Shown piece by piece: positions 11,783-64,000 of a DNA stretch of 64,000 nt; the stretch's first letter is position 1; the number at the start of each line of letters is the position of its first letter. Made by a program: the position numbers and the translations under genes. The stretch spans positions 1,865 through 65,864 of the forward strand of contig CAKOYQ010000008.1 in the NCBI GenBank assembly GCA_934130935.1. Reading direction: 5' to 3'. This stretch comes from an uncultured Clostridia bacterium (lineage in GTDB: Bacteria; Bacillota; Clostridia; TANB77; CAG-508). The notes below the pieces were generated by a model. That model was given only the letters and a program-made list of their open reading frames with translations. It was not told the origin of the DNA and searched no databases.

Positions 11783-11786
11783 AAGA

Positions 11787-20084: not shown

Positions 20085-20186
20085 ATATGCAATGTATTGC
20101 ACAACGCCTATTTATATTACACTATTTTTCCTCTGTTGTCAATACATTTTTCAAATTTTTTTTATTTTTTTACATAAAATTGTTTT

Positions 20187-20372
20187 TTATGCATTTAATT
20201 TTTCAATAACTTCTTCTACATCTATCCCATGAACTTCACATGCTTCTTGTAATGTTTCCATTTGAGAAGCTGGACAACCTATGCAATGCATACCACATTC
20301 TATTAGGATTTCTGCTTTTTCTGGAGCAACTTGTAATATTTCTCCAATTTTAGTGTCTTTTTTAAATTTCAT
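20187..20372 (-). CDS. DUF1858-like small protein, 61 aa
   Basis: Sequence resembles the DUF1858 domain (ECGMHCIGCPAS...) as I remember that family. Confidence 0.5.
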   Translation of the reverse strand: MKFKKDTKIGEILQVAPEKAEILIECGMHCIGCPASQMETLQEACEVHGIDVEEVIEKLNA

Positions 20373-29854: not shown

Positions 29855-30556
29855 TTAGCTTGCAAGATTATTTGCTAATTTTATCTCATTTTCTGTGATA
29901 TTAAAATTTTGCCCATTATTTTTTATTAAATTATGAAGTGTTTTAACCCTTTTTGTTTCTTTAATAATATTTTCCAATGGAATTATTTTTTCTGACTCCT
30001 GCTCAATCTTTTTTAATTCTTTTGTCATTTTCTCAAAATCTCTTTGGTTATAATATTCTTTCCAGTTTTTTAAATATTTTTCTAATTTCTCAATAGTATT
30101 TGTCTGTTTATTTAACTCAGTTTTTATATTTTTAGTTACATTATTTAATAATACATTTTTTCCATTTTTTATAAGATTATTAACATTTTTATTTATATAC
30201 CCATTTTGATATGTTTTATTTATTACTTTATCTAATACACCTGAAATTGAATCTATAATTCCTCCACTACCTATTGCAATTTTTACTTGTTCAATATTTT
30301 CAAAATTTCCACTAATTATTCCATTAGCACTTTTCCAAAAATCTATAGCAGAATTTATTGCTGTATCTATGCCTGATTTTAACCCATTTTGTAATAAAGC
30401 ATTTTTTATATCAATTATTTGATTTTCTATTAAATCTGGTAATATTGCTCTTAGTCCTATATCCAAAGCACTATTTATTGTTCTTCCAATAACATTATTT
30501 AAAAAATTTTTTTTCTCTATATTAATATTATTATTTATTTGATTTTCTATTTCCAT
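29855..30556 (-). CDS. Hypothetical protein, 234 aa (start moved to the internal Met MEIENQ)
   Basis: RBS AGGAAAGGA sits 8 nt upstream of ATG 30556. This start avoids the 50-bp overlap with the upstream gene that the track start 30625 would create. Confidence 0.45.
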   Translation of the reverse strand: MEIENQINNNINIEKKNFLNNVIGRTINSALDIGLRAILPDLIENQIIDIKNALLQNGLKSGIDTAINSAIDFWKSANGIISGNFENIEQVKIAIGSGGIIDSISGVLDKVINKTYQNGYINKNVNNLIKNGKNVLLNNVTKNIKTELNKQTNTIEKLEKYLKNWKEYYNQRDFEKMTKELKKIEQESEKIIPLENIIKETKRVKTLHNLIKNNGQNFNITENEIKLANNLAS

Positions 30557-30575
30557 ATATTTTTCCTTTCCTTTT

Positions 30576-32399: not shown

Positions 32400-32418
32400 A
32401 TTTTTCCTTTCTACCTTT

Positions 32419-32994
32419 TTAATATTTATCCAAAAATTTTTTTAAATTAAAAAATGAAAATAAAATATTTTTTGTTTCATCTCTACTACATTCTAAAACT
32501 ATATTTCCACATCTTATCAAACAATCTTTTATTTTAAAATATTTTTCATTTAATTCTTGAATAATATTTTCTTCTAAATTTTCTGTATTATTTTTAATAA
32601 TTAAATAAATATTTTTTGATGCAGATTTGTTTTTATTATTTTTTTCTTTAATAAATTCAACATAATTTTGTGAATATTTTTTTATTATTTTATTTTTTTC
32701 TCTTTGAGATATTTTTTGAATATTTTCTATGTGTTCACTTAAATCTTCTTTTTTACTTTGAATTAAAATTTGAATATCAAAATTACATGTTTTTAAAAAA
32801 ACTTTATAAGAATTTAAAATCGATTCTTTTTCTAATTGAGTTTTTAAATTAAAATTTATTGGAATTACCTTTAATATTTTTATATATTTATTTTTTTTTA
32901 CTTTTATAATACCTCTTTCTAAAATTCTTTCTATGGGTATCCACTTTTGTATAGATCTAATCTTTCTCACCTCCAATATACCAAGCTGCAACAT
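32419..32994 (-). CDS. TrsD-like protein (VirB4 N-terminal-like domain as a separate ORF), 191 aa
   Basis: KWIPIERILERGIIKVKKNKYIKILKVIPINFNLKTQLEKESIL aligns with FDTVRDNMIIQKNGNRYLMVVECQGINYDLMSGVEKTSVE of ORF 50818..52029. It sits immediately upstream of the ATPase. Confidence 0.5.
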   Translation of the reverse strand: MLQLGILEVRKIRSIQKWIPIERILERGIIKVKKNKYIKILKVIPINFNLKTQLEKESILNSYKVFLKTCNFDIQILIQSKKEDLSEHIENIQKISQREKNKIIKKYSQNYVEFIKEKNNKNKSASKNIYLIIKNNTENLEENIIQELNEKYFKIKDCLIRCGNIVLECSRDETKNILFSFFNLKKFLDKY

Positions 32995-33685: not shown

Positions 33686-35617
<1,932 letters not shown>

Positions 35618-48522: not shown

Positions 48523-49401
48523 ATGCCAAAAAAGACAGGATTAGGTAAAGGGTTAGATGCATTATTTGGTGGTGCACCAATAGAAATGCAAAATAACAAT
48601 AATAATAATGATACAGAAGAACTAGAAAATAACGAAAATTTAAAAACTTTAAAAATAACAGAAGTTGAACCTAATAGAGATCAACCAAGAAAAAACTTTA
48701 AACAAGAGGCTTTAGAGGAATTAGCAGAATCAATAAAAACATATGGTATAATACAACCGATTGTTGTTTCTAAACAAGATGGATATTATGGTATTATTGC
48801 AGGAGAAAGAAGATGGAGAGCTGCTAAGCTTGTAGGATTGGAAGAAATTCCAGCAATAGTAAGAGAATCAGATGAACAAACAAATAAAGAAATTGCTTTA
48901 ATAGAAAATATACAAAGAGAGGATTTAAATCCTTTTGAAAAAGCGTTAGGTATACGTCATTTAATGGAAAAATACGGATTGACACAAGAACAGGTTTCAA
49001 AGAAATTGGGAAAAAGTAGAAGTAGTATTTCTAATACAGTTAGAATATTATATTTAGCTCCAGATGTATTAGAATTAGTAAAACAGGGTAAATTAACAGA
49101 AGGACATTGTAAAGCATTAGCAGGAATAGAAGATGCAGATCGTCAATATGCAGCAGCTCTTAGAATGATTGATAGAGGAGAATCTGTAAGGCAAGCAGAA
49201 AGTAAAAATAGAATAACTAAAAACGAAAAAAAGATTGATCCTAAGTATAAATATTTGTATGAAGATATTGAAGATAGATTTCAAGGTTTTTTTGGAACAA
49301 AAGTTAAATTAGATCAAGGAAAAAGAAAAGGAAGAATTATAATAGAATATCATAATAATGAAGATTTAGAAAGAATGTTAAATTTAATTAAGGAAAATTA
49401 A
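48523..49401 (+). CDS. spo0J: Chromosome partitioning protein ParB/Spo0J
   Basis: ParB box GERRWRAA and an HTH. Confidence 0.95.
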   Translation: MPKKTGLGKGLDALFGGAPIEMQNNNNNNDTEELENNENLKTLKITEVEPNRDQPRKNFKQEALEELAESIKTYGIIQPIVVSKQDGYYGIIAGERRWRAAKLVGLEEIPAIVRESDEQTNKEIALIENIQREDLNPFEKALGIRHLMEKYGLTQEQVSKKLGKSRSSISNTVRILYLAPDVLELVKQGKLTEGHCKALAGIEDADRQYAAALRMIDRGESVRQAESKNRITKNEKKIDPKYKYLYEDIEDRFQGFFGTKVKLDQGKRKGRIIIEYHNNEDLERMLNLIKEN

Positions 49402-50009: not shown

Positions 50010-50372
50010 ATGAGCACAAAAACAATGAAAATATTAACAACAATCGCAACAATATTATTAATTATATCTATGGGAGCTTCTGTTGTATATGCGGATGGAA
50101 TTACTCCAGATAAATTAAAGCCATCATATCAAGGAACAGGAGATATACAAACTGTTGGGCAAAAAATAATGGGAATTATAAATACAGTTGGAGTTGTCAT
50201 TGCTGTTGTAATATTAATGATATTAGGTATAAAATATATGATGGGTTCTGCGGAAGAAAAAGCAGAATACAAGAAAACAATGATTCCATATATTATTGGT
50301 GCTGTATTGATATTTGGTGCAACAACTATAGCAAATGCAGTATATAATTTTGCAAATGGTTTAAATAGTTAA
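50010..50372 (+). CDS. VirB2/TrbC-like pilin-family protein (signal peptide + two hydrophobic helices)
   Basis: TTGCAA-17-TATAAT promoter at about 49888 and RBS AAGGAGG. C-terminal helix region matches the paralogs at 63088 and 63735. Confidence 0.55.
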   Translation: MSTKTMKILTTIATILLIISMGASVVYADGITPDKLKPSYQGTGDIQTVGQKIMGIINTVGVVIAVVILMILGIKYMMGSAEEKAEYKKTMIPYIIGAVLIFGATTIANAVYNFANGLNS

Positions 50373-50477
50373 TAAAAATTAAAAAACTTAAAAAAAAAAA
50401 TCGATAAATACTTCCATTTATCGATTTTTTTTGCTATAATAAAATAAGATAATTGTATAAAAACAAAGGAGGAAGAT

Positions 50478-50825
50478 ATGGGAACATATAATTTACCAAG
50501 AAATGTAAAAGGAGAAGGAAGAATACTGTTTATATTTTCGACAAAATCATTAATAACAACTTGCATTGGATGTGCAGTAGGACTTGTATTTTATTTTATA
50601 TTCAAGCTTTTAGGATTGACAATGGTGGGTTTCATAATAACATTAATTTTTGCTCTAATAGGATATTCAATAGGAATGTTTAAGATACCAGATAATAATG
50701 GATTTGAGTTGACCAAAAAGACAGGTGGAGAGAATATAGATGATGTTATAATAAGGTATATAAAATTTAAAAGAAATAATAAAAAATTATATGTATATAC
50801 AAAGGAGGAAAAGTCAAATGGATAG
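50478..50825 (+). CDS. TcpE-family / VirB3-like membrane protein
   Basis: Two TM helices, 115 aa, immediately upstream of the VirB4 module. Confidence 0.55.
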   Translation: MGTYNLPRNVKGEGRILFIFSTKSLITTCIGCAVGLVFYFIFKLLGLTMVGFIITLIFALIGYSIGMFKIPDNNGFELTKKTGGENIDDVIIRYIKFKRNNKKLYVYTKEEKSNG

Positions 50826-52029
50826 TCAATCAACTACACAAATTGTAAGTGTACTTTCAATTTTTTTAATCTTAATTGTTGTAGCAATAATTGCGTTAAT
50901 ATCTTTTTTAGTATATCTTCATTTTAAAGAAAAAAGAGAAAAAGGAACTGATAAAAATGAGAATGTAAGTTCCAATGAGAAAAATACAAAAGCACAAAAT
51001 AAACAATCAATTTTTAATTTCATGGAATTTGATACAGTAAGAGATAATATGATTATACAAAAAAATGGTAACAGATATTTAATGGTAGTAGAATGTCAAG
51101 GGATAAATTATGATTTAATGTCAGGAGTAGAAAAAACTAGCGTAGAAGAAGGATTTGTACAATTTTTAAATACATTAAGACATCCTGTACAGATATATAT
51201 CCAGACAAGATCAATTAATCTTGAATCAAGTTTGTCTGTATATAGAGAAAAGGTAAAAGCTGTAGAAATGAAATTAACAAATATGCAAATGCAGTATGAA
51301 CAAATGAGGGAATCAGGAGAATACTCAGAAGAACAATTAAGAAGAGCATTTTTTGAAGTTACAAAACAAGCCAATTTATATGAATATGGAAAATCAGTAT
51401 TGCAAGATACTGAAAGAATGAGTTTAAATAAAAATATATTAAATAAAAAATATTATTTAGTAATTCCATATTATTCAGCTGAAGCTGCAAATGATAATTT
51501 AGATAAAGCTGAGTTAGAGGGTATTGCTTTTTCAGAATTATATACAAGAGCACAATCATTAATAAGATCGATTTCAATATGTGGTGTTAGAGGAAAGATA
51601 CTTAAATCAAACGAACTGATTGAATTGCTATATATGGCATATAACAGAGATGAAGCAGAGACTTTTGGATTAGACAAAGCGATGAAAGCAGGTTATGATG
51701 AAATTTATGTAACAGCACCAAATGTATTGAAGAAAAAGATGGCAGAGATAGATAAAATGATAGAAGATAGAGCAGTTAAAATGGCAAATATGAAAGTGGA
51801 TGAAGCTAAAACAGAACTAGAAAGACAAGTTGAAGAAAAAGAAAACAACATGGATGATTTAATTGCACAAATGGCAAAAATTATTATACAAGAAAATGAG
51901 CAATACTTAGGAACAGAATTAACAGACAAAGCGATTGAGAAAATAGATGATGAAAAGACAAAAGAAGGAGGTAATGCAAATGAGAAAAGAAAAACGACAA
52001 GAGGTAGAAAAAAGACAACAGCCAAATAA
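50818..52029 (+). CDS. TrsD-like membrane-anchored protein carrying a VirB4 N-terminal-like domain
   Basis: RBS AAGGAGG 8 nt before ATG 50818 (the track start 50791 overlaps the previous gene). N-terminal TM. The FDTVRDNMIIQKNGNRYLMVVECQGINYDL region is paralogous to ORF 32419..32994. Confidence 0.5.
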   Translation: MDSQSTTQIVSVLSIFLILIVVAIIALISFLVYLHFKEKREKGTDKNENVSSNEKNTKAQNKQSIFNFMEFDTVRDNMIIQKNGNRYLMVVECQGINYDLMSGVEKTSVEEGFVQFLNTLRHPVQIYIQTRSINLESSLSVYREKVKAVEMKLTNMQMQYEQMRESGEYSEEQLRRAFFEVTKQANLYEYGKSVLQDTERMSLNKNILNKKYYLVIPYYSAEAANDNLDKAELEGIAFSELYTRAQSLIRSISICGVRGKILKSNELIELLYMAYNRDEAETFGLDKAMKAGYDEIYVTAPNVLKKKMAEIDKMIEDRAVKMANMKVDEAKTELERQVEEKENNMDDLIAQMAKIIIQENEQYLGTELTDKAIEKIDDEKTKEGGNANEKRKTTRGRKKTTAK

Positions 52030-53941
52030 CAATGAACCACAATTATTAAAAAGACAAACAATAAAAGAATTGATTGCACCTTCTGGAATTGATGCAAGTA
52101 ATATAGATCATTTGGAAATAATTTCAAATGTAAAAAAATATGCAAGAAGCTTTTTTGTATCTACATTACCAAGAATGTGTACATTTCCCGAATTATTTAG
52201 AGATATGTATTTTTTCGGTGATATAAATACATCAATATATATAAATCCTATACAAGAAGCTAGATCACAAAATCAGTTGAACAAAGTTATTAATGAACTA
52301 GAAACTGAAAGAATAGTTGCAGCAGACAGAGGAAACATAAATAGAGAAAGTAATTTAACACAAAAAAGATTTGAGGCAGAGCAATTAAGAGATGAAATTG
52401 CTGCAGGATATAATAAATTATATGAAGCATCTGTTGTTGCTACAATTTTTACATATAACTTAAGTGATCTTGATAGACTTACCAAATTATTAGCAACTGA
52501 AATGTCAAAATCATTAGTAGGAATAAAAACCTCATGGGCAATGCAAGAAGATGCATTTAAATCCAATGTACCATTAATGGAGGACAAAATTAAAAAAACA
52601 CACACATTTGATAGGCGTTCAATGTCGACAGTATTTCCATTTGTAACGTCAGAAGTTGGACACTCAACAGGAATACCATTAGGATTTAACAAACAAACAG
52701 GGACACCAATATTATTTGATAATTTCCATAGTTCACTTACAAATTATAATATGGTAATATTTGCAAAATCTGGTGCTGGTAAATCTGTAACGATGAAGAC
52801 ATTAATAAGTAGATCATCATTATTAATGGGAATTGAAAGTTTAGCACTAGATGCCGAGGGAGAATATGAGATAGTAGCAGAGTCTTTAGGTGGCATTAAT
52901 GTAGTGCTTAGTCCAAATTCTAAAACAGTTATAAATTTGTTTGATGTAGAAACTGAAACAGCCAAAGATGAGATAACAGGAAGAGAAAGGTTAGTACTTA
53001 ATATTGAAAATAAAGTTGAAGACGTTACACAATCATTATTAACAATGGCAAGAGGAAGCACAAGAAGTACAGAAGTAAATGAGTTGACAAAACAAATTAT
53101 AGCAGAATCAGTTGCAGAGGAATATGCTGCATTGGGAATAACAGGTGACCCTAATAGTTTGTATGAAGCAACAAGCAATTTCAATAGGGGTGATAAGTTA
53201 TATAGAGAAAAGAAAAAAATGCCAACAATAGGGTCTTGGTATAGAAGGATACAAGCGAAAGCACAAGATAATTTAAATGATGATTATAGGTATCATTATA
53301 GTTACTTATTAAAAGTAATGAAGCAATATATAAGAGAATATAATGGTCAAATGGCTTATTTTGATGGACAATCTACATTTGAATTACTTGAAGGAGCACC
53401 ATTTATAAATTTAGACATATCTCAATTAGAGGAAAAATTTGCAAGACCACTTGCACAACAAATTCTTTTAACTTGGATATGGGAAAAATTTGTTAAGAAA
53501 AATAGTGAAGATAGGAGTAAAGCTACAAAGAAAAGAGTAATTGTAGATGAGGCTTGGATGTTACTTCCATACCCAGAGGCTGTTGACTTTTTAAATACAA
53601 TGGCAAGACGTGCAAGAAAAAGAAATGTTTCTCTTGCGGTAGTTTCACAAAGATTTCAAGATTTTTATGAGAGACCAGAAGCACAGGCAGTACTTACATC
53701 TTCTGATACGAAATTATTTTTAGCACAAGATAAATCGGAAATACAATATTTAAAAGAAGTATTTAAATTAAGCGAAGGAGAATCAAGTTTCTTAGTAACT
53801 TGTGGAAAAGGTGAAGGTTTGTTGAAGGTTGGACCTGAGTCTGCTATTTTACAGATTACACCTACCCAAAAGGAATTTGAGTTTGTTGAAACTAACTTGA
53901 ATAAGTTAGTAAATAAAAGAAGAGTAGTAGGAAATCTTTAA
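51980..53941 (+). CDS. VirB4/TrsE/TraE-like conjugation ATPase, 653 aa
   Basis: RBS AAGGAGG then ATG 51980. Motifs LIAPSGID, Walker A IFAKSGAGKSVT, DAEGEY, Walker B VDEAWMLL and VSQRFQD. Confidence 0.8.
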   Translation: MRKEKRQEVEKRQQPNNNEPQLLKRQTIKELIAPSGIDASNIDHLEIISNVKKYARSFFVSTLPRMCTFPELFRDMYFFGDINTSIYINPIQEARSQNQLNKVINELETERIVAADRGNINRESNLTQKRFEAEQLRDEIAAGYNKLYEASVVATIFTYNLSDLDRLTKLLATEMSKSLVGIKTSWAMQEDAFKSNVPLMEDKIKKTHTFDRRSMSTVFPFVTSEVGHSTGIPLGFNKQTGTPILFDNFHSSLTNYNMVIFAKSGAGKSVTMKTLISRSSLLMGIESLALDAEGEYEIVAESLGGINVVLSPNSKTVINLFDVETETAKDEITGRERLVLNIENKVEDVTQSLLTMARGSTRSTEVNELTKQIIAESVAEEYAALGITGDPNSLYEATSNFNRGDKLYREKKKMPTIGSWYRRIQAKAQDNLNDDYRYHYSYLLKVMKQYIREYNGQMAYFDGQSTFELLEGAPFINLDISQLEEKFARPLAQQILLTWIWEKFVKKNSEDRSKATKKRVIVDEAWMLLPYPEAVDFLNTMARRARKRNVSLAVVSQRFQDFYERPEAQAVLTSSDTKLFLAQDKSEIQYLKEVFKLSEGESSFLVTCGKGEGLLKVGPESAILQITPTQKEFEFVETNLNKLVNKRRVVGNL

Positions 53942-53955
53942 TTCGAGGAGGAATA

Positions 53956-56463
53956 ATGAAGCTTATGTTTAGAAAAAAATGTATAGCACGAAAGATATTA
54001 ATAATTGTACTAATAGCACTGTCTTTAACATTTGCAATATCACAGTGTTATAGTGTTTATGCAGAGCCAACAAAAGTTGAGGAAGATGATTTGCCTGATG
54101 AAAGTTTGGGGAGTAGAATAATGGGATCGCTGCTAAAACAAATTATACAACTGATTGACTCTGTGGGTGATGTTATAATGGGAACATTGAATAAGTTTAT
54201 GCTAGGGGCTGACGGTTTTTCTTCTGCAATGTTATCAGTTGATGATGAAAACTTGGATCCAAATTCTGGTTCATGGTTAACAGAAAATTTAGGAGAGCCA
54301 GATTTTGATTATGGAGAGAATACTATAAATACAGCATTGTTTGGTAATGATAAATATGAAGTCCCTAATTTTTTATATTCACCAGAAGCAATATTCTCAA
54401 ATAATATAGCTGCTTTGGATGTTAACTTTTTAAATCCCAATAAATACACAGCAGTTTCAGAAAGTAAGGCGGCACAAGAAGCTTCAGTTTCAGCTGCAGG
54501 AACTGATGGACTAAGAAAAGTAATTTCTGACTGGTATATATCTTTTAGAAATATTGCTATAGTAGGATTGCTATCAGTATTAATTTATTTAGGAATTAGA
54601 ATTGTAATTAGTTCAACAGCAGTAGAAAAAGCTAAATATAAAGAAAATTTACAAAATTGGGTAGTCGCATTATGCTTAGTGTTTTTTATACATTTTATAA
54701 TGTCAGGATTATTAATGATAACAGATAAATTCAATAATTTATTTGAAAATACTGCAAATAGTGGAATTGTTGTTCAATCATTTTATGAACATAAAGGAAA
54801 AACAGAAATTAAATTTAGAACTAATCTTATTGGTTTTGTAAGATTTAATGCACAATCAGCAAGTGCATATGATACAGTAGCATATTCAATATTATATTTG
54901 ATATTAATTGTTTACACATGTAGATTTACATTTATGTATTTTAAGAGATTTTTATATATGGCATTTTTAACAATGATTGCACCATTAGTTGCGTTAACAT
55001 ATCCACTAGATAAAATGGGAGATGGTAAAGCACAAGCATTTAATGCATGGTTTAAGGAATATGTTACACATTTAATATTACAACCAGTACATTTGATATT
55101 ATATGTTGCTTTTGTATCATCAGCAATGGATTTGGTAAAGAATAATATTTTATATGGAATAGTTGCAATTGGATTTTTGATACCAGCAGAAAAATTAATT
55201 AAGGAAATGTTTAATATAGGAAGTGGTGCAAAAACAGCAGGAGGACTTGGTACTTTTGCAGGAGGAATGTTTGCCAAGAATTTACTTGATAAAGGAGTTG
55301 CTAAAATTGGCAAGGGAGGCAAATCAGGAGATGGTTCGAATAAATCAGGTTCTTCAGGTAATAACGACGAGTCTAATAATAAAATAAGAACTCAAGACAG
55401 AGATTTTGCACAATCATTTGCTGATGATGGAGGCAATCAAAATAATCCACAATTAAATGGCGGACAGGATAACAATGGAGATGAACAAGATGATGAAACA
55501 CAAAGAATGATGAATGACAGACAAGTATGGCAAGATATGGCAAATGACCCAAATGAGATAGAACAGGTTAGAAATGATGCTCAAAGAGAAGTTGATCAGA
55601 TAGATCAAAATATGCAAGGACGAGAGCCAGGAAATGTACCAACTATTAGACAACAAAATAACAACAGTACGCCTAAAGAACAGGATAAATGGAGAAGAAA
55701 GTTAGCAAAGAAAATGGCCATAAAAGGAGCTAAGAAAATAGGTAAAACAGCATTTAAAGGAGCTAAAGCACTTGGAGCTGGAGTACCTAGAGCTATAGGT
55801 GCTACAGTGGGAGGTGTGGCTGGGTTAGCTATGGGTGCTGCAACTGGAGACTTTTCTAAAACCTTACAATATATGGGAGTTGGAGCAATGACAGGAAATA
55901 CCATTGGCAAAGCGGGGGCTGATTTATCAAAAAGAGGTATTGATTCGGCTGTAGCTGGCATGAAAGGTTTGGGATATGAAAAAGACAAAGCAAAATACGG
56001 AATTGCATATGCTGCCGAAAAAGCAGAGATGAAACAAAATAAAAGAGCAAGAAGAGAGTTTATGAAGAGTAAAGAAGAGCAAGAAAAGTATGAAGAAATG
56101 GCAGGAAGAATTAGTAGGGCAACACAACAAGATGTAAGTGCAAAAGATTTAATGAGTGCTGCATTTGATTATAAGTTAGCAGGAATTACAGATGAAAAAC
56201 AAATCGAGAATGGACTAAAAATGGAAGCTAAATATGGGAAGGATAATAAAAATATTCACGAAAACATGATTGATATTGTTAATATGGCTAGTAGTTATGG
56301 AAAAGATTATGTCTTAGATGATAAAAAACGTAGTTCAATGCAAGATACAATAAAATCAAAAGTTAAAGGTGCAAAAAATCAAGATAAAGTTTGGGATTTA
56401 TATACAGAGGCATTGGGATTTGATAGTAATAGTTTAGGTGATAAATATAAGATGCAGAGATAA
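53956..56463 (+). CDS. TcpH/VirB6-like polytopic membrane protein with long C-terminal Gly/Ala-rich soluble region, 835 aa
   Basis: Signal/TM then at least 5 TM helices and a hydrophilic tail. Size matches TcpH of pCW3-type systems. Confidence 0.55.
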   Translation: MKLMFRKKCIARKILIIVLIALSLTFAISQCYSVYAEPTKVEEDDLPDESLGSRIMGSLLKQIIQLIDSVGDVIMGTLNKFMLGADGFSSAMLSVDDENLDPNSGSWLTENLGEPDFDYGENTINTALFGNDKYEVPNFLYSPEAIFSNNIAALDVNFLNPNKYTAVSESKAAQEASVSAAGTDGLRKVISDWYISFRNIAIVGLLSVLIYLGIRIVISSTAVEKAKYKENLQNWVVALCLVFFIHFIMSGLLMITDKFNNLFENTANSGIVVQSFYEHKGKTEIKFRTNLIGFVRFNAQSASAYDTVAYSILYLILIVYTCRFTFMYFKRFLYMAFLTMIAPLVALTYPLDKMGDGKAQAFNAWFKEYVTHLILQPVHLILYVAFVSSAMDLVKNNILYGIVAIGFLIPAEKLIKEMFNIGSGAKTAGGLGTFAGGMFAKNLLDKGVAKIGKGGKSGDGSNKSGSSGNNDESNNKIRTQDRDFAQSFADDGGNQNNPQLNGGQDNNGDEQDDETQRMMNDRQVWQDMANDPNEIEQVRNDAQREVDQIDQNMQGREPGNVPTIRQQNNNSTPKEQDKWRRKLAKKMAIKGAKKIGKTAFKGAKALGAGVPRAIGATVGGVAGLAMGAATGDFSKTLQYMGVGAMTGNTIGKAGADLSKRGIDSAVAGMKGLGYEKDKAKYGIAYAAEKAEMKQNKRARREFMKSKEEQEKYEEMAGRISRATQQDVSAKDLMSAAFDYKLAGITDEKQIENGLKMEAKYGKDNKNIHENMIDIVNMASSYGKDYVLDDKKRSSMQDTIKSKVKGAKNQDKVWDLYTEALGFDSNSLGDKYKMQR

Positions 56464-56518
56464 AAAAATAATTGATATAAAAATATATTATTATAAGTTG
56501 CAGGAAAGAGGATGAAGT

Positions 56519-57451
56519 ATGTATAAATTATGGAGATACTATAATCAAAATAGAGTAAAAGTATGGACTGTAATAATAACAATAATATTAGTATATTCTC
56601 TAATAAAAATATTAAATATACAGGCGAGAAATAAAAAGCCAGAAACAAAGAAAGAAACAACATCAAATGTTGTTTCTTATCGTAACGAAAGCGAATCAAT
56701 GGTATCTGGGAAAAGTATTCCAAATGAGTATAAAGATAAATTCGGAAGTTTTATAGATCAATTTTTTACAGCATGCATAGAACATGATATAAAAACAGCA
56801 TATAGCATGCTGTCAAATGATACTAAACAGGAGCTATATCAAACTGAAAAGCTTTTTGAGAAAAATTATTATGAAAATAAATTTACAGGAGATAAGCAGT
56901 TTTCATTTCAATCATGGTCAAATACTGATGGAGTATATATTTATCAAGTAAAAATATTTGACAATATGCTTTCTACAGGGAATACAAATGATAATTACAT
57001 AGAGGAATATGTAGCTTTAAAGGTTGAAAATGGAGAATATAAGCTAAACATAAACAGTTATTTAGGGAGAAATACAATAAATAAAAAAAGCGAAGATGAT
57101 AAATTAGCGGTTCAAGTAGTTAGGGCAGATAGGTATTTAGATTATGAAATCTATACAATAAATATCCAAAACAAAACTAACAAAAAATTAATATTAGATG
57201 CTAAAAGGAAAACAAATACTTGTTACGTTCAAGACAATTTAGATAATAAATTTGAGGCACTTTTGTATGAAAATAAAGATGAAGACCTAATATTTAATCC
57301 GAATGAGGTAAAAACAATACAAATAAAATTTAGTGATGCTAATAGGTCAAATATGAAAATAAAAAGTATTAATTTTACAGATATAGTATATAGTTCGGAA
57401 TACAACAATAATACTAATATTAAAGGCGAAAACTTTAAAATAGATATTTAG
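56519..57451 (+). CDS. Membrane-anchored extracytoplasmic protein (candidate VirB8/TcpC-like)
   Basis: Single N-terminal TM then a 280-aa soluble domain; position inside a T4SS operon. Confidence 0.35.
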   Translation: MYKLWRYYNQNRVKVWTVIITIILVYSLIKILNIQARNKKPETKKETTSNVVSYRNESESMVSGKSIPNEYKDKFGSFIDQFFTACIEHDIKTAYSMLSNDTKQELYQTEKLFEKNYYENKFTGDKQFSFQSWSNTDGVYIYQVKIFDNMLSTGNTNDNYIEEYVALKVENGEYKLNINSYLGRNTINKKSEDDKLAVQVVRADRYLDYEIYTINIQNKTNKKLILDAKRKTNTCYVQDNLDNKFEALLYENKDEDLIFNPNEVKTIQIKFSDANRSNMKIKSINFTDIVYSSEYNNNTNIKGENFKIDI

Positions 57452-57482
57452 AAAAAATAAAGCCAATAAAGAGGTGAAATAT

Positions 57483-58049
57483 TTGGGAATAATAAATAAT
57501 TTTAAAAATAAAGCAGAAGACGAAGCAAAAAAACAAGCTAAAAAAGTAGTAAAAAAAGCTGTTTTAAGTGCTTTGTTGTCAATAATGAATACATTGTTAC
57601 CAGTTTTATTAATTGGAATAGGAGGATTGGTGGTCCTTGGGCTTATCGATTGGGTTGTAGAAATATTTACTTCTGAAAATAATCCTGAATTAATATACGA
57701 ATCACTGGAAATTGAAAATGTTGCTGATTTGATTGAGATTAAAGGTGATGAACAAAATGGTTACTATTTGGATTTTATTGATGATATTGATAAGAAACTT
57801 GAAGATGTTATAGATAAATATAATAAATCTGCTGAATATCATAATCTTCCAGAAGATGTTAATTTTTTAAAAAAGATGTTAAAAGCAGAAGTATTTACTC
57901 AGCTTCCAAACCTGAAAGGAAATATACCAAGTGAATCTAAAGATGGATTTCAAGGTGCAATAAATATTAGAAGGGTAACACCGAATAAAAAACCACGGAG
58001 AAATGCAAAATACTGGCAAAGGAGAAACTTCTACTATCGAGCAAGCTAA
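57483..58049 (+). CDS. Small membrane protein; 3' end overlaps the hydrolase ORF in another frame
   Basis: RBS GAGGTGA then TTG 57483 (the track GTG 57474 is also possible). TM helix LLPVLLIGIGGLVVLGLIDWVV. Confidence 0.4.
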   Translation: MGIINNFKNKAEDEAKKQAKKVVKKAVLSALLSIMNTLLPVLLIGIGGLVVLGLIDWVVEIFTSENNPELIYESLEIENVADLIEIKGDEQNGYYLDFIDDIDKKLEDVIDKYNKSAEYHNLPEDVNFLKKMLKAEVFTQLPNLKGNIPSESKDGFQGAINIRRVTPNKKPRRNAKYWQRRNFYYRAS

Positions 58050-61000
58050 AGTTGACGAACCTGTTGAGATTACAGATAGAAATGATTTAAATAAATTAAA
58101 TAATATGTCTAATGGATCAAAACTTAGAATTATTCCAATAGACGCACCGCTCTATAAAAATATTAAAGGATACTGGACACCTATGACAGATGAAAAAGAT
58201 CCTAATAAGCAAATAAAATTACAAAAGGGTGATATAGTTACTTATAAAGGCGAGTATGAGACTTTTAAAAATGTTGTTACAGATGAGACAATCGCATATT
58301 TAAAGGTTACAACAGAAGATGAAAAAGAGGGATATGTTAAATTATCTACAGTGGAACTTGTACTAAATAATAATGATAATACTAAAACAGGAAAGATAAC
58401 AAACCAGAATTTAAAAAGTAATGTAACTTCCAGAGCAAAGGTTTCGGGAAAAACAATAGGACAAGATAAAGAAACATATGTAGTAGCAATAGCGGCAGGA
58501 AGAAACAATGAAGATGAAAAGGGTATAACTAATAAAGAAAAAAATTTAAAAGAAGAAGAGCTTACAATTAAGGTTGCAGAAAAAGTAAAGGAACTTCTAA
58601 GTGGATATACAAATATTAAAGTTGTACAAACTGGAAGTACGTCAAATAATCTAGGAGGAGTAAAGAATAAAGATAGAGCACAGCTAACTAGAGATGTAAA
58701 TCCAAATTTATGTATTCAGATATATTTTGGAGATGGTAATGATGTTGGTGTTGAAACAATATATAAAGAGGGAGACGATATTTCACAACAACTTGCAGAA
58801 ATATTAGCTAAAAACATGTCTTCTTCAATGGGACTTGAAAATTTAGGTGCCGGAGCAGATACTACTAAATGTAAAGATGCAGATGGAGCAAGTGCATCTT
58901 TAAGTATTATAGATAATGCAGCTGTAACAGGATTCCCATCAGTTGTAGCGATGGGGGGGAATTTAACTAAGGACCCTGATGCAAGTGTTATTGCTGGAGA
59001 TGGTGTTAATAAATATGCGCAAGCGATAGTTAACAGTATAGATGAATATTTTAAAGCAGATTATTCAGGACGTACATCAACAGAAGATGTGAATACAACT
59101 TATAAAGATAGTACAGAGTCAAGAATTATTAATATGAAGTATGTATCTCCAGAGAAGCTACAAAAATATGTAGATGGTGGCGATTTTGAAAACGCTTTAA
59201 AATCATATACAATAGATGATGAAAAAAATTTAGTAATTGTTACTTGGTCAAGAGGAGAAGATGGAAGTATTGAATTAAGAACTAATAATTCTATGAATTT
59301 GAAAACAGCATTAAAAAAATTTGTAATGCCATATGAATATTTATTATTTTTCTACATTGATACAGATTATGAAAAATTTGTAGATGATTTGGAAGAAGAA
59401 GTTATGAAAACTGAAATAGTTATGGCTGTACAAGATAATATAAGCACTACTAATACAACTGAAACAACAAAACAAAAAAAGGATGCAGATGTTGATAAGT
59501 TTGATGAAGATTGGCACGAGACAAACAAAAAGACTACACTAACCGAAAACGTAAGTACTACTGTGAATGTAACATATGTACAAAACTGGTGTGTAAAGGC
59601 ATATCAAGAAAATAGTTATAGTGAGGCAGTATTACAACTAGGAGACGAAGAAGAAAAAATTATAGATGTACCAGGTAAAGTTACAGAATCAACATCAAAT
59701 TCATCTACAACGGAAGAGGTTGTTAATAGTGGCAGTGAAACATATAATGAGATAGAAACAGATGCTAATGGTAATTCAACACAAGTACAAAAGAGTTATA
59801 ATTATAAGACATATGAACAAAAATTATCAAATATACATACGATTTCTAATTCATATGAGAGAGGAGAATACAAAACAGAAGGTAGAGAAAGTGTATTTGT
59901 AGAATTATATAATAAACATAATATGATAATGAAGGTTAGAACATCAGATTATTTATTTAAGATTATAGAAAATAATGAGAGAACAGCAGATTTATTAGAT
60001 TTAACTAAATACTTAATTTATAAAGCAACTAATATTCCTTGGGGAGTTTTGGAATTCGATTTTAGTATATTTGATTTAGAGCAATTTAATAGTATATCAA
60101 TGGGAGGATTAGATGCATTTATAAGATATTTAAATAAAATGGAAGGTAGTTTTGGTGAATCTCCAGATGGAACTAAATATGTAATAGGGGTTGATACAAA
60201 TGCAGGCAGTTTAGCGTTAGCACATGGTATTGATTTGACATATGGTGGATACAGGAAAAGATTTGAAGATGCAGGATATAAAATAAGGGCTGGAGAGTAT
60301 GTTGATAAAGAATTTGTAGACGGTATAGTAAAAGAAATAGTTTTAAAAGACTTAGATGAAGTAAATAAATTGGGATTAGATTTAACGCAATATCAAAAAT
60401 ATGCATTGGTATCCAGAATGTTTAATTGTGGTCATGCAGGAGCATTATTATACTCACGTGGTGGTAACAAGAATTTTGTTGAAGCATATAATCGTTATTG
60501 GGACCAAGAAAAAGATGATGAATATAAAGTGACTGAAAATGAAGGCATGTATAAACATAAACTCTATGAAACTTACATGAATAAGCCAGTTACTTCTCAA
60601 AGTGGTTATGTGCCTGGACTCGAAACAAGAAGGAGATCAGAATGGATTTTATTTAAAACAGGTTATTATACATATACAGGTGAATGGTGTTCTGATTCTT
60701 ATGGAGGAAATATAGTAGAAGCAGCTGCAACTGTGCATGATTATATATCTTCAAATGAATATTTATATTACACAGATGGAGGAGGAGGTTTGCCAAGTTC
60801 TTTAAAAAATGTAAAAAATACAAGATCTGTTTGTTGTGCAACATTTGTATCATGGACATTATATGAAGCAGGATATGATTGGATGGAACAGTGTCCAAAT
60901 ATAAATGCTTGTGCGTCATTATTACCATTCTTAATTAAGAATGGCGGAAACAAAATAATGAATCCAACACTAGATAAGTTACAACCTGGAGATATCTTAT

Positions 61001-61149
61001 TTTATGGTAGTGGAGGTTCAGACCATACAGATATATATATAGGAGATGGCTTATGGTATAATTGTGGAGACACTCCATCAACACGTAGAAAAAATCCATA
61101 TAAAAAGTCTTTAAGAGCTGATGTATATTGTATAATAAGATTTAATTAA
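58003..61149 (+). CDS. Multidomain peptidoglycan hydrolase (amidase_3-like + NlpC/P60 or CHAP), TcpG/TraG-like, 1048 aa
   Basis: VVAIAAGRNNEDEKGI...LTRDVNPNLCIQIYFGDGND matches the MurNAc-LAA family 3 amidases. The C-terminal VCCATFVSW...DHTDIYIGDG carries a Cys/His papain-like pair. Confidence 0.65.
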   Translation: MQNTGKGETSTIEQAKVDEPVEITDRNDLNKLNNMSNGSKLRIIPIDAPLYKNIKGYWTPMTDEKDPNKQIKLQKGDIVTYKGEYETFKNVVTDETIAYLKVTTEDEKEGYVKLSTVELVLNNNDNTKTGKITNQNLKSNVTSRAKVSGKTIGQDKETYVVAIAAGRNNEDEKGITNKEKNLKEEELTIKVAEKVKELLSGYTNIKVVQTGSTSNNLGGVKNKDRAQLTRDVNPNLCIQIYFGDGNDVGVETIYKEGDDISQQLAEILAKNMSSSMGLENLGAGADTTKCKDADGASASLSIIDNAAVTGFPSVVAMGGNLTKDPDASVIAGDGVNKYAQAIVNSIDEYFKADYSGRTSTEDVNTTYKDSTESRIINMKYVSPEKLQKYVDGGDFENALKSYTIDDEKNLVIVTWSRGEDGSIELRTNNSMNLKTALKKFVMPYEYLLFFYIDTDYEKFVDDLEEEVMKTEIVMAVQDNISTTNTTETTKQKKDADVDKFDEDWHETNKKTTLTENVSTTVNVTYVQNWCVKAYQENSYSEAVLQLGDEEEKIIDVPGKVTESTSNSSTTEEVVNSGSETYNEIETDANGNSTQVQKSYNYKTYEQKLSNIHTISNSYERGEYKTEGRESVFVELYNKHNMIMKVRTSDYLFKIIENNERTADLLDLTKYLIYKATNIPWGVLEFDFSIFDLEQFNSISMGGLDAFIRYLNKMEGSFGESPDGTKYVIGVDTNAGSLALAHGIDLTYGGYRKRFEDAGYKIRAGEYVDKEFVDGIVKEIVLKDLDEVNKLGLDLTQYQKYALVSRMFNCGHAGALLYSRGGNKNFVEAYNRYWDQEKDDEYKVTENEGMYKHKLYETYMNKPVTSQSGYVPGLETRRRSEWILFKTGYYTYTGEWCSDSYGGNIVEAAATVHDYISSNEYLYYTDGGGGLPSSLKNVKNTRSVCCATFVSWTLYEAGYDWMEQCPNINACASLLPFLIKNGGNKIMNPTLDKLQPGDILFYGSGGSDHTDIYIGDGLWYNCGDTPSTRRKNPYKKSLRADVYCIIRFN

Positions 61150-61159
61150 GGAGTTTATA

Positions 61160-62492
61160 ATGAATAATAAATATAAAATAATAAACATATTAATATGTCT
61201 TTTAATTATAATGATTTGTATTTTGACAGCGTGCATTATTATTATAAAAAATCATAATGCCAATCGGAAAAAATGAAGAGTTACCTACTGATACAACACC
61301 GATTGAACTTGAAGAAGATATACATGAAGTAGCAGAAAAAGGTTTGTACTATTGTATGAAAAATATTTGTGGAAAATATTATGAATATATTAATCAATAT
61401 AATACAGATACATATTATTCGAGATTAGAAGGTGAGATTACAGTTACTCCAGAAGAAAAACAAGACACATATGAAACTATTTGTAAGCTTTTGGATAGTG
61501 AGTATATTAAGGATAATAGTATTGAGGACAATTATATAAAAAAAATGCTAATCACGTATAAAGAATCTGATGATTTTGAAATTAATAAAATGTATTCTCA
61601 AGATATTGATGAAAACACAACAATTATGTGGGCAGAGATATCACTATTAAAAGAATATAAAAAAACAAATAACAATAAAGTAGTCATTGCTAAATTAGAT
61701 AGAAAAAATAGTTTGTTTTCTATAATACCTAAAGAAATAACAAGTCAACAAATATTGCAAGACAAAATTAATGTTTCGACTGATGAAATTGAAGAAAATA
61801 CATATAATAAATATAAATACCAAATTATTAGTGATGAACAAATAGTAAGTGATCTTTTAATGAAATATAAGTATGCAGTTTTGTATAATAGGGAAGATGC
61901 ATATGCTTTATTAGATAAAGAATATAGGGAAAAAAGATTTGGAGATTATAATACATTTAGTAAATATATTGACAATAATATAAAAGAAATAAATGCTTTA
62001 AGTTTTTCAAAATATTTGGTTAATAACTATAATGAATATAAAGAATATATATGTGCAGATGCAGAAGGAAATTTATATATATTTCATGACAAGTCTATTA
62101 TGAATTTTTCTGTAATATTAGATACATACACGGTAGTACTTCCACAGTTTACTGAAAAATATGATAGTGTAAATAATACAAAAAAAGTTGCAATGAATAT
62201 TGATAAAATAATTCAGGCTTTGAATGTCAAAGATAGTAAATATATTTATAGCAAACTTGATGATGTATTTAAGAAAAATAATTTTCCAACATTGAATGAT
62301 TTTCAAAATTATATTAATGAAAAATATCCATCAACGTATGATTTTGAATGTTCTACATATAATGAAGAAAATGGCGTACATGTACAAGATATAATACTTA
62401 AAGACAAGAAAAATCAAGAACAAATAGAGTCTTCAATAATAATGAAATTAAAAGATAATTATGATTTTGTAATGTCATTTACTATTAAGTAA
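61160..62492 (+). pseudogene. Lipoprotein gene interrupted by a frameshift at an A6 run (61268-61273)
   Basis: RBS AAGGAG 7 nt before ATG 61160. MNNKYKIINILICLLIIMICILTAC has the lipobox LTAC, then stops after 38 codons. Removing one A joins it in frame to the 411-aa ORF 61257..62492. Confidence 0.6.
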
Positions 62493-62537
62493 TAAATTAG
62501 CATCAAGAAGTTTATGAGAATAATTCGATAATATATA

Positions 62538-62590
62538 AATTTATGAAACATAAAGATAGAAGAAGTTGTCTTTATGTTTCATTTTTTATA
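62538..62590 (+). terminator. Terminator hairpin ATGAAACATAAAGA...TCTTTATGTTTCAT then T-run
   Basis: 14-bp perfect stem followed by TTTTTTA after the lipoprotein gene. Confidence 0.6.
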
Positions 62591-62642
62591 TTAATATTTA
62601 ATAAAAAATAATGATAATTACACTAGTATATTTGTATTAATT

Positions 62643-62671
62643 TTGACAAAATTAACATAAAGTGGTATAAT
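62643..62671 (+). promoter_or_regulatory. Consensus sigma-A promoter TTGACA-17-TATAAT
   Basis: Exact -35 and -10 hexamers with a 17-bp spacer, about 95 nt upstream of the small ORF. Confidence 0.75.
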
Positions 62672-62765
62672 AATATATATATAGGTATGTCCTATTTAGT
62701 ATATTGTCCTCGCGTTTAGAGAAAGTAAAAATCAACAAGAAAAATATTTTTTGGAGGTAAACAAT

Positions 62766-62912
62766 ATGTTGTTGGGTATTATTTTGGTTTTGGCAGGCAT
62801 TGGCTTGATTTGTAGTGGCATCTACGGTCTCTACAAAGGGGAGGAATCCCCTGCCACAATGATGTGGTTGATTATCGTTGGGGTTGCGATTGAACTCGCA
62901 GCTGTCAAATAA
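62766..62912 (+). CDS. GC-rich 48-aa two-helix membrane peptide (MLLGIILVLAGIGLICSGIYGLYKGEESPATMMWLIIVGVAIELAAVK)
   Basis: RBS GGAGG 8 nt upstream. Local GC far above background, with atypical codons (GGC, CTC, GCC, ATC, TAC). Own promoter and terminator. Below the 60-aa track cutoff. Confidence 0.6.
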   Translation: MLLGIILVLAGIGLICSGIYGLYKGEESPATMMWLIIVGVAIELAAVK

Positions 62913-62929
62913 TAATCTTCCAACTAATC

Positions 62930-62966
62930 TCGCATGGACCAATAAAGATTTTATATCTTTATTGGT
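62930..62966 (+). terminator. Rho-independent terminator CCAATAAAGAT-TTTAT-ATCTTTATTGG then T-rich
   Basis: 11-bp perfect stem followed by TGTATTTTTA. Confidence 0.75.
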
Positions 62967-63087
62967 GTATTTTTATGATTAAATATAGTTAAAAATTAAA
63001 AACAACATAAAGAATGTAATATATAAGTTGAAAAAATAGAAGAAATAAGTTATAATTAATATAGAGAATAAGAAGGAGGGGGATATT

Positions 63088-63579
63088 ATGCAGAAATATA
63101 TTTTTAAAATTTTATCCATATGTATTATTATGATATTTATAATTGGTAATATTTCCTTTGTAAACGCTAAGGAAACAGTAGCGGAGATAGATGAATCTGC
63201 AGTGGCAGAGGATATTACTAAGAATTGTATTTTGGTTGGAACGATATATAAACAACCTAAAAAAGAAGATAGTACAGATGCTGGAAAAAGTTTGGATGAT
63301 TCAATAAATGATGCGGATAGTTTTATACAAGAAGGAGAAGTAAAGTATGGTAATGGCCTATCAGATGTATCAAATACAATATATAATATTTTATTAACAG
63401 TTGGTGTTATAGCAGCAGTACTTGTAGGAGCGGTCATAGGGATAAAATTAATGGCATCAGGAATAGAAGGAAAAGTTGAAGCTAAACAGTTATTAGTACC
63501 ATATGTAGTGGGATGTGTAATGATATTTTGTGGATTTGGAATATGGAAATTGATTGTAACGATATTACAAAATGTATAA
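63088..63579 (+). CDS. VirB2/TrbC-like pilin-family protein, 163 aa
   Basis: RBS AAGGAGGGGG. Signal peptide. C-terminal helices match those of 50010 and 63735. Confidence 0.55.
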   Translation: MQKYIFKILSICIIMIFIIGNISFVNAKETVAEIDESAVAEDITKNCILVGTIYKQPKKEDSTDAGKSLDDSINDADSFIQEGEVKYGNGLSDVSNTIYNILLTVGVIAAVLVGAVIGIKLMASGIEGKVEAKQLLVPYVVGCVMIFCGFGIWKLIVTILQNV

Positions 63580-63601
63580 ATTTATTTAAGGAGATAAATA
63601 T

Positions 63602-63986
63602 ATGAAATATTTAAAAATGCTAAAAAGAATAGTTTGTATAATATTAAGTGTAATGGTAATAAGCAATATATTTTATAGTAGTATAGTGTATTCTACAAGT
63701 GGAACATCAACATTAGGTCCGCTTAATTCGTATAATGGTCGGAAGTGGAGGAACTTCAACAAAATTGCAAACTAAAGCAGAGATTATATTAGGGGTAATT
63801 CAAACTGTGGGAACTATAATATCTGTTATTGTTCTTATGATAATAGGAATAAAATACATGCTTGGTAGCGTAGAAGAAAGATCGGAATACAAAAAAAGTA
63901 TGGTTCCGTATTTAATAGGTGCAGTTTTATTATTTTCGGGAACAGCCATACCACAGATTATATATACACTATCACATAATCTATAA
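63602..63986 (+). pseudogene. Frameshifted VirB2-like pilin paralog (signal-peptide ORF 63602-63775 plus body ORF 63735-63986 in another frame)
   Basis: MKYLKMLKRIVCIILSVMVISNIF... is a signal peptide in one frame and ends at 63775. The pilin body begins in another frame at 63735. The junction has a near-duplicated GGAAC(A/T)TCAACA motif. Confidence 0.5.
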
Positions 63987-64000
63987 GAATGATATTATTT

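Follow-up and report, generated by a model that had tools for sequence, protein, structure and literature searches.

A polymorphic GC-rich micro-gene in a type IV secretion-like gene cluster of an uncultured Clostridia bacterium: a putative accessory membrane peptide

Introduction

Why does a genome with 27% GC keep a GC-rich gene of only 48 codons, equipped with a promoter and a terminator of its own? The question is raised by positions 62643–62975 of a 64,000-nucleotide (nt) stretch of DNA, here called the window, from an uncultured Clostridia bacterium of the lineage CAG-508 (contig CAKOYQ010000008.1, positions 1,865 to 65,864). Genes of this size escape annotation pipelines. An earlier interpretation made from the letters alone (the sequence-only reading) had described the micro-gene as a self-contained unit, recently acquired from a higher-GC donor, and had suggested a type I toxin, an entry-exclusion or immunity peptide, or a holin-like membrane peptide.

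Our comparisons lead to a different history. The explanation that we favor, tentatively and with a little less than even confidence, is that of an accessory membrane peptide of a type IV secretion system (T4SS), both polymorphic and expressed constitutively, with an mRNA selected for hairpins. The micro-gene would encode a translated two-helix membrane peptide of 48–51 amino acids (aa), a long-standing accessory of a T4SS-like apparatus that would be chromosomally fixed, relaxase-less, and located next to parB and oriC. The sequences themselves show how the gene is built, that its coding sequence is under selection, and that its position, its allelic structure, and its high GC3 (GC at third codon positions) are maintained; transcription, RNA structure, membrane location and, most of all, function are inferred.

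Results and discussion

Old alleles of a coding gene

Searches of 5.8 and 1.8 billion proteins returned just five versions of the peptide: P0001, which is 48 aa long and identical to the window peptide, and P0002, P0004, P0006, and P0007, which are 51 aa long and 53–74% identical. No peptide homologue was found in these sets beyond this locus. The related contigs that we could align (L-numbers below) were all from metagenome assemblies, and many were labelled human gut. Between alleles, the open reading frame (ORF) was 20–40% different and the flanks were ~100% identical; near-invariance extended over the promoter and the ~20 nt at the start of the transcript and, on the other side, over the terminator and ~170 nt of the intergenic DNA behind it. 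Synonymous divergence (dS, Nei-Gojobori) of the micro-ORF was 0.61–0.80 between four alleles (only 0.13 for P0007 vs. P0004) and was saturated in comparison with L019. In the same contig pairs, dS was 0.005–0.12 for the 163-aa gene that follows, and it was 0 for an 83-aa TrbC ORF when the window was compared with L020. The background dS of the L019/L023 sister lineage was 0.22–0.35. The ratio of nonsynonymous to synonymous divergence (dN/dS) was 0.09–0.29 between alleles and, judged by this measure, the micro-ORF is a real coding gene under purifying selection.

The alleles form mosaics with their surroundings. L001 and L002 have a common ORF allele and different leaders, and L006 is 100% identical to the window across 62629–64000 and unrelated upstream of that. 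As far as the alignments can tell, the five discrete versions are old alleles, with recombination reshuffling leader and ORF. At least five such alleles would thus be kept in the population and exchanged by homologous recombination through the near-invariant promoter and terminator flanks. The window and L033 differ by one synonymous change in the micro-gene unit, in a background that is 99–100% identical, and the contigs with the P0007 allele are 99.86–100% identical to L009 and uninformative on within-allele variation.

Two mutational sources of the diversity were considered and rejected. Ongoing hypermutation is contradicted by the single change between the window and L033. A-specific mutagenesis of the type known from diversity-generating retroelements does not fit the allele substitutions, which are also found at non-A positions, and no reverse transcriptase was noticed in the window.

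The position 62629/62630 is a sharp breakpoint, upstream of which three unrelated sequences occur, each ending in a different terminator-like hairpin. Nearly all contigs with the two upstream contexts other than that of the window start 40–150 nt before the breakpoint, and L006 is also cut there.

A fixed slot in a T4SS-like cluster

Pfam scans place the micro-gene inside a T4SS-like cluster. The first half of this cluster contains, in order, a TrbC/VirB2-like gene, a PrgI/VirB3-like gene, a 412-aa protein, VirB4, and an 835-aa ConG/VirB6-like protein; the second half contains proteins of 310 and 191 aa, a 1048-aa cell-wall hydrolase, a 411-aa protein, the micro-gene, the 163-aa TrbC-like gene, and a split TrbC gene. 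In its Pfam TrbC match, the 163-aa protein falls short of the threshold; the 83-aa ORF behind it exceeds it. Ahead of the cluster, Pfam and tRNA scans show dnaA, dnaN, recF, gyrB, an insertion with a second VirB4-like ATPase, gyrA, a VirD4-like gene, mnmE, mnmG, rsmG, parA, parB, and two tRNA-Ser genes. No relaxase or integrase was seen near the cluster, and no relaxase was present among the Pfam-scanned ORFs.

In all contigs of this species, the order of the 411-aa gene, the micro-gene, the TrbC-like gene(s), and a GerM gene is repeated. The micro-gene is always located 5' of the 163-aa TrbC-like gene (in L019, its homologue has 202 aa) and, where the contig reaches that far, 3' of the 411-aa gene. 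The slot is also found outside the species. The ConG-like protein has thousands of relatives, and contigs in which it is 44–64% identical carry the same cluster right after parB (a few genes downstream in L031 and L032). In the same slot, L025, L027, and L030 have two-helix peptides of 58, 60, and 63 aa, each with an extended -10 promoter and a hairpin terminator, and in L031 a 50-aa member has moved upstream of tRNAs and pilin-like genes. A profile-profile comparison (hhalign) of the window alleles with these counterparts gave a 74% probability (E 2.7e-5, 44 columns). The cluster is shared next to parB in relatives and is therefore taken as vertically inherited rather than as a recent island. 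From gene order across these contigs, the micro-gene occupies a constant position in a T4SS-like cluster that is chromosomal, adjacent to parB, without a relaxase, and common to related species. Relaxase-less, origin-proximal T4SSs of this type are seemingly widespread in uncultured low-GC gut bacteria.

A comparable arrangement has been described in Patescibacteria, where variable VirB2 arrays lie next to a relaxase-less T4SS near dnaA (PMC12102498). That mating-pair formation (MPF)-FATA-like system resembles the window in its position beside the replication origin, in the lack of a relaxase, and in its several variable TrbC/VirB2-like genes. The window differs in being Firmicute-like and low in GC (GerM, DnaD/DnaI-like, VanW, and G5 proteins), and the micro-peptide itself is not detectably homologous to VirB2.

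In L027, a duplication (18368–18573 and 20152–20361; 87% identity over 210 nt) covers the promoter, the leader, and the start of the coding sequence (MLGIIFN) of the counterpart. TrbC-like genes lie between the two copies, which drive paralogues of 60 and 73 aa.

GC-rich codons as a maintained feature

The GC content and codon usage of the micro-gene had been called alien to this genome, and our calculations agree. The GC of the micro-ORF is 0.46, compared with 0.27 for the window, and its GC at third codon positions (GC3) is 0.54, compared with 0.177 ± 0.041 expected for the same amino acids under the codon usage of the window. None of 20,000 simulations reached 0.54, and the bias thus persists when the amino acids are controlled for. 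All 32 reference genes in the window have a GC3 of 0.06–0.19. The codon CTC occurs twice among the 48 codons of the micro-ORF and 6 times among 15,736 reference codons. The micro-gene is the strongest GC peak of the window after the tRNA genes and two Gly/Ala-rich coding stretches.

The proposed cause, recent horizontal acquisition from a higher-GC donor with codons that have not yet ameliorated, is largely refuted and in our view very unlikely. The raised GC3 itself would fit an import, and since leader and ORF differ from those of related species while a terminator motif is common to them, an old cassette replacement is possible. Against a recent import, all five alleles, which are near or at synonymous saturation, have a GC3 of about 0.40–0.53 and keep the extremely rare codons. 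The positional counterparts in relatives are also raised (0.18–0.39 vs. 0.10–0.135 in neighboring genes), the flanks are native and AT-rich, the slot is conserved, and the protein searches gave no outside homologue that could point to a donor. GC3 has been kept in all alleles despite synonymous turnover, and amelioration of foreign DNA is therefore no explanation: the GC-rich codons are a maintained feature with no sign of recent foreign origin. An extreme GC and codon island in an AT-rich genome need not mean horizontal transfer, and this locus is a clean case.

High expression is not the cause of the bias either, because rpmH, the gene behind the only other perfect promoter in the window, has a GC3 of only 0.18. 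The GC-rich, A-poor, rare-codon usage would most likely come from selection for stable hairpins in a transcript of a 27%-GC genome.

Predicted hairpins in the mRNA

RNAalifold applied to the alleles predicted a 5' hairpin, four hairpins in the ORF, and the terminator. In the four ORF hairpins, 90.7% of the alignment cells were paired, compared with 83.4 ± 1.5% in shuffled alignments (0/500) and 31–55% with slid partners. Their covariation score was 0.41 vs. 0.28 in shuffles (0/500), a comparison that draws on five independent alleles only and on a structure taken from the same alignment. Within the hairpin of codons 25–29, the third base of codon 25 faces that of Ser28 (pair 179:188), and the combinations GGG/TCC, GGC/TCG, GGT/TCA, and GAA/TCT provide four pair types in five alleles. 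The hairpin of codons 40–46 shows a synonymous change of U:A to C:G in 3 of 6 sequences (GTT...GCA to GTC...GCG). All five alleles were predicted to fold more stably than their synonymous-codon permutations (z = -0.9 to -2.0), with a folding z of -4.5 for the whole transcript. The compensatory synonymous changes and the folding tests point to selected mRNA hairpins. Besides the small and shared set of alleles, two results speak against this part of our explanation: the count of double-change pairs in the ORF hairpins alone was not significant (43/500 shuffles), and L033 disrupts the codon 25/Ser28 pair (TCC to TCA).

If structure is selected, the locus might be a structured regulatory RNA first, for example one that controls the downstream pilin-like genes or T4SS mRNAs, with the peptide secondary (a dual-function RNA). 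The GC island, which is comparable to tRNA genes in a 27%-GC window, the folding and compensatory changes, and the invariant 5' and 3' ends of the transcript would all agree with such a role. We consider it improbable, given that the amino-acid sequence is under clear purifying selection, that across species the peptide architecture is kept and the nucleotide sequence is not, and that neither an Rfam match nor target complementarity was identified.

A self-contained transcription unit

The anatomy of the unit is largely as the sequence-only reading had outlined it, with every element of the promoter-peptide-terminator layout found at its position (Table 1). The promoter consists of a -35 hexamer TTGACA (62643–62648), a 17-nt spacer, and a -10 hexamer TATAAT (62666–62671) with an upstream TG (extended -10), a match of 12/12 to the consensus that bears out the earlier description. 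Only two perfect TTGACA-N16-18-TATAAT sites exist in the window, compared with 0.22 expected, and the second is upstream of rpmH. The micro-gene promoter is unbroken in all related contigs that reach that far. A perfect palindrome centered on the -35 hexamer could be a candidate operator; it is partly disrupted in L001 and L020.

The leader had been estimated at roughly 95 nt. It would be ~88 nt if transcription starts near 62678, and it does contain the TGTCCT direct repeat that had been pointed out (62688–62693 and 62705–62710). This repeat is not kept in other alleles; only a 5'-terminal hairpin ATAGG/CCTAT (62681–62695), unchanged across 6 distinct sequences, and the pyrimidine motif CCTCG (62708–62712) are. 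The CCTCG motif is invariant and its pairing partner varies by allele. The strong ribosome-binding site is confirmed, as GGAGG 8 nt before the ATG. The terminator is the perfect-stem hairpin with a T-run that had been described, with a stem of 12 bp and not 11, and its stem motif CCAATAAAG is also present in the related species L025 and L027. The predicted transcript has a length of ~297 nt (62678–62975). Transcription would proceed on its own from this near-perfect, probably constitutive promoter to its own terminator; therefore the peptide level should be independent of the upstream T4SS genes and of the next gene. An independent near-perfect promoter would suit a constitutively needed factor.

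This layout also recalls a type I toxin, a small membrane-damaging peptide whose mRNA is stable and structured and which an antisense RNA keeps under control. The 48–51-aa hydrophobic peptide, a strong promoter, and an mRNA with a 5' hairpin, an anti-Shine-Dalgarno-like CCUC, a terminator, and predicted 5'–3' pairing are features that T1TAdb lists, and type I toxin mRNAs, such as those of the Fst/par families in that database and of Clostridioides difficile systems, share peptide size, mRNA length, and these elements with the micro-gene. The database describes hydrophobic peptides of 20–60 aa, mRNAs of 150–400 nt, a 5' stem-loop, and a terminator (PMC8594479), and the micro-gene falls within this description with 48 aa, ~297 nt, the hairpin at 62681–62695, and the terminator at 62938–62966. 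The micro-gene departs from these toxins in other respects. On the minus strand, a scan of 62641–63223 gave no site that resembled a promoter at 9/12 or better, and no antitoxin family of Rfam matched. Occlusion of the Shine-Dalgarno sequence, compared among six transcript variants, is not conserved: L002 and L009 have the sequence paired, the window and L001 only partly so, and L019 and L020 leave it largely open. With its two helices, the peptide also differs from type I toxins, which to our knowledge are single-helix, and it lacks a charged tail. The position in the secretion cluster is fixed, and the slot is kept across species with ConG-like proteins only 44–64% identical, unlike patchy addiction modules. 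The toxin suggestion thus comes out weak, and we regard it as decidedly unlikely.

A 96-aa ORF on the antisense strand (62652–62942) was considered as a gene and rejected, as it is open in the window allele only.

A new family of two-helix peptides

The two-helix hydrophobic peptide that had been proposed was recovered by AlphaFold2, which modeled it as a helical hairpin (helices 2–24 and 29–47) with a predicted local distance difference test score of 93.9. The peptide begins directly in helix 1, without a leader or signal peptide, and Glu43 in helix 2 is unchanged across alleles. It would presumably reside in the membrane.

The peptide did not belong to any family of Pfam, PHROGs, PADLOC, or NCBIfam, in which only sub-threshold matches of hairpin type were obtained, and none of the characterised exclusion protein families in these collections matched. 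Rfam gave no match at the locus at gathering or permissive thresholds. Profile scans of 185,579 species genomes with the peptide and its 163-aa neighbor gave no confirmed locus, DNA searches and tblastn against phage and plasmid collections gave zero matches to the micro-gene, and metagenome and viral DNA scanned with the invariant terminator yielded no additional contig. PDB profile and Foldseek searches were non-specific, with generic hairpins as the Foldseek matches. The peptide family is new and unannotated, with no name in any source searched.

The only resemblance that recurs is to DUF308 (PF03729), for which sub-threshold matches were obtained in 3/5 relatives (best E 1.9e-4) and 1/4 window alleles (E 2.3e-3). 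The L025 counterpart reached 17.3 bits (E 5.9e-3; cut-off 25), and an NCBIfam match to HdeD (E 1.4e-3) was below its curated cut-off. DUF308/HdeD-type repeats share with the peptide a two-helix hairpin with small-residue motifs. They differ in that DUF308 proteins have several repeats and no known T4SS link, and all scores are under the curated cut-offs. The first hairpin of an AmiS/UreI channel was rejected, with the N-terminus of UreI as the best PDB profile match (E 0.07) and Pfam AmiS_UreI matching one allele (E 0.042).

The holin-like suggestion did not survive either. A single allele of four matched Phage_holin_5_2 (PF16079), at 15.8 bits vs. a cut-off of 29.2, and neither phage context nor a lysis cassette is present. 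The nearby hydrolase is the cell-wall hydrolase of the T4SS, with the 411-aa gene between it and the micro-gene.

The micro-peptide could also be a micro-subunit with a role in the structure or assembly of the T4SS or pilus, for example a mini-pilin lacking a leader or a TrbC/VirB2 partner, that varies through exposure to phages or partner cells. It is always beside TrbC-like genes, even where the module has moved (L031) or been duplicated (L027); its own strong promoter suits an abundant subunit; its two-helix hairpin is the architecture of the VirB2 core; and the variable VirB2 arrays beside the relaxase-less T4SS of Patescibacteria provide a precedent (PMC12102498). Homology to TrbC/VirB2 pilins (PF04956 and PF18895) was rejected: only 1/4 alleles matched, at 12.2 bits vs. 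a cut-off of 27.9, and hhalign with the TrbC-like paralogues of the cluster itself gave probabilities of only 0.5% (A2 vs. A5) and 0.4% (A7 vs. A8). The missing signal peptide also counts against a pilin, as does the loop, which in this species is acidic or neutral and not basic. We consider such a subunit a serious but doubtful alternative.

A possible role in recognition

When the window was compared with the L009/L010 strain, which is 96–97% identical overall, identity fell below ~85% only in the micro-gene and in segments of the ConG/VirB6-like gene. In the ConG-like protein, these were aa ~31–135, the loop aa 270–297, and the C-terminal aa 580–710, and the gene had a dS of 0.17, compared with 0.02–0.07 in its neighbors. 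By this shared hot-spot status, the micro-gene becomes a candidate specificity determinant.

A precedent for ConG polymorphism is found in ICEBs1, where the ConG loop aa 276–295 sets the specificity of exclusion by YddJ and where ConG diverges in one other part, its C-terminal region (bioRxiv 10.1101/2021.01.25.428195). The ConG-like protein of the window varies in a similar loop and, again, toward the C-terminus. The locus also resembles YddJ-ConG in its layout: in both, the gene of a small protein lies about two genes 3' of the cell-wall hydrolase, within a T4SS cluster of the Gram-positive type. YddJ is an exclusion protein of ~126 aa; the peptide is a 48-aa two-helix hairpin, and no homology between them was seen. 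The locus further differs from ICEBs1 in its chromosomal setting, where neither a relaxase nor an integrase was seen close by, and in that the pairing with ConG does not appear strict.

Pherotype and immunity loci carry recognition alleles flanked by conserved DNA. The micro-gene resembles such cassettes in its discrete, deep alleles between near-identical flanks and in the breakpoints at the edges of the unit. It differs from them in being a bare membrane hairpin without adjacent signalling, processing, or bacteriocin genes.

Entry exclusion or immunity, as proposed in the sequence-only reading, is a live option. Like the genes of YddJ, TraS, Eex, and TrbK, the micro-gene lies inside a T4SS cluster, and this position is conserved; in sequence, it matched no exclusion protein family of Pfam, NCBIfam, PHROGs, or PADLOC. 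We infer that exclusion or recognition, or something like it, is the leading candidate role, with a variable structural micro-subunit second. The most likely role of the accessory peptide would be that of a specificity or self-protection factor that acts with the secretion machine in the membrane (entry exclusion, kin recognition, or a variable machine-associated subunit). If this were true, the micro-gene would be a very small, tractable handle on partner discrimination by domesticated secretion systems.

Several observations weigh against this interpretation. With dN/dS below 1, there is no sign of positive selection on the peptide, and its 8-residue loop offers very little exposed surface for recognition. 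Entry exclusion in the classical plasmid sense may not be applicable here, since the cluster has no relaxase among its Pfam-scanned ORFs and seems to be a permanent part of the chromosome. Database searches found no homologue of known function. The divergence hot spots are also not confined to the two genes, since the window and L033 differ in a further mosaic patch that covers the C-terminus of the hydrolase and the N-terminus of the 411-aa gene. P0001 occurs with two ConG alleles (the window and L033, where ConG is split), among 3–4 linkages in total.

Among these few linkages, L033 speaks against a strict coupling of micro-gene and ConG alleles, an idea that was dropped; the P0007 contigs have one common ConG allele. 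A bolder version of the recognition role, which we consider unlikely as it stands, is a compatibility locus of a domesticated chromosomal T4SS, in which ancient peptide alleles would decide which cells the apparatus engages (self or kin exclusion, mating-type-like) and the information would reside in both the peptide and the mRNA hairpins.

Two further observations concern this variation. Mosaic, recombinant patches at 53956–56463 and 60400–61300 show 75–89% identity in strains that are otherwise 99–100% identical, and they include the N-terminal domain of the ConG-like protein as well as its loop and C-terminal region. In L010 and L033, a frameshift seems to divide the ConG gene in two.

Table 1 Coordinates of the micro-gene, its control elements, and associated features in the window.
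Feature	Coordinates	Strand	Basis
T4SS-like cluster containing the micro-gene	50010-63986		Pfam scans
VirD4-like coupling protein	20726-22432		Pfam
835-aa ConG/VirB6-like gene, other divergence hot spot (window vs. L009/L010)	53956..56463	+	Sliding identity, protein alignment
Left edge of ultra-conserved block	62630..62642	+	Alignments; 3 unrelated sequences upstream of 62629/62630 in related contigs
Perfect palindrome 9+1+9, TTAATTTTG-A-CAAAATTAA, centre = -35 hexamer	62637..62655		Inverted-repeat scan
Sigma-70-type promoter, TTGACA / 17 nt / TG-n-TATAAT	62643..62671	+	12/12 match; kept in related contigs
5' untranslated region, ~88 nt, putative start site near 62678	62678..62765	+	Sequence
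Shine-Dalgarno GGAGG, 8 nt 5' of ATG	62753..62757	+	Sequence; same in all alleles
Micro-ORF, 48 aa + stop (TAA 62910-62912), predicted two-helix membrane hairpin	62766..62912	+	Sequence MLLGIILVLAGIGLICSGIYGLYKGEESPATMMWLIIVGVAIELAAVK; AlphaFold
Predicted mRNA hairpin, codons 25-29	62837..62852	+	Third bases of codon 25 and Ser28 pair
Predicted mRNA hairpin GTTGCGA-TTGAAC-TCGCAGC, codons 40-46, holds ultra-rare CTC	62883..62902	+	97.6% of cells paired
Intrinsic terminator, 12-bp perfect stem (62938-62966), 5-nt loop, T-run	62938..62975	+	Same in all alleles
Promoter of the next gene (163-aa TrbC/VirB2-like), TTGAAA-17-TATAAT, 11/12	63028..63056	+	Same in all alleles

Other features of the region

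T4SS components are dispersed among essential origin-proximal genes. Between gyrB (33686–35617) and gyrA (26524–28977), an insertion on the minus strand (29855–32994) encodes a 607-aa VirB4-like ATPase and ORFs of 256 and 191 aa. When parB of the window (48523–49401) was compared with that of L023 (4540–5418), dS was 0.006, compared with 0.22–0.35 in the other genes of L023, which suggests that the parB shared by the two is a recent recombinational import.

Further to the left (7829–16610, minus strand), two ORFs of exceptional length, 1317 and 1607 aa, lie side by side, and the 1317-aa ORF has no Pfam domain at E <= 1e-5. Beyond the right end of the window, L006 contains 5.6 kb (2165–7795) with no ORF of at least 80 aa on either strand, and the same gap is found in L001 (2074–7306). 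The GC of the L006 stretch is 7–16% per 500 nt, and it consists of degenerate A/T-rich repeats with units of ~447, 104, 86, and 68 nt. An rRNA operon in this gene-free stretch after the GerM gene was ruled out, as Rfam gave no match.

The split TrbC/VirB2-like gene (63602–63986) comprises a 57-aa ORF with a signal peptide and the 83-aa ORF with the pilin domain in the +1 frame. The split point reads TAT AAT GGT C GG (window junction at about 63731–63745), and the junction TAY AAT GGN CGG is found in three diverged lineages (L019 ~1201, L027 ~19894, and L030 ~20142); in L025 the ORF is intact (~20026). The codon CGG does not occur among the 15,736 codons of the window genes. The split has the look of a programmed +1 frameshift, conserved between lineages and placed at a hungry codon, rather than that of a pseudogene.

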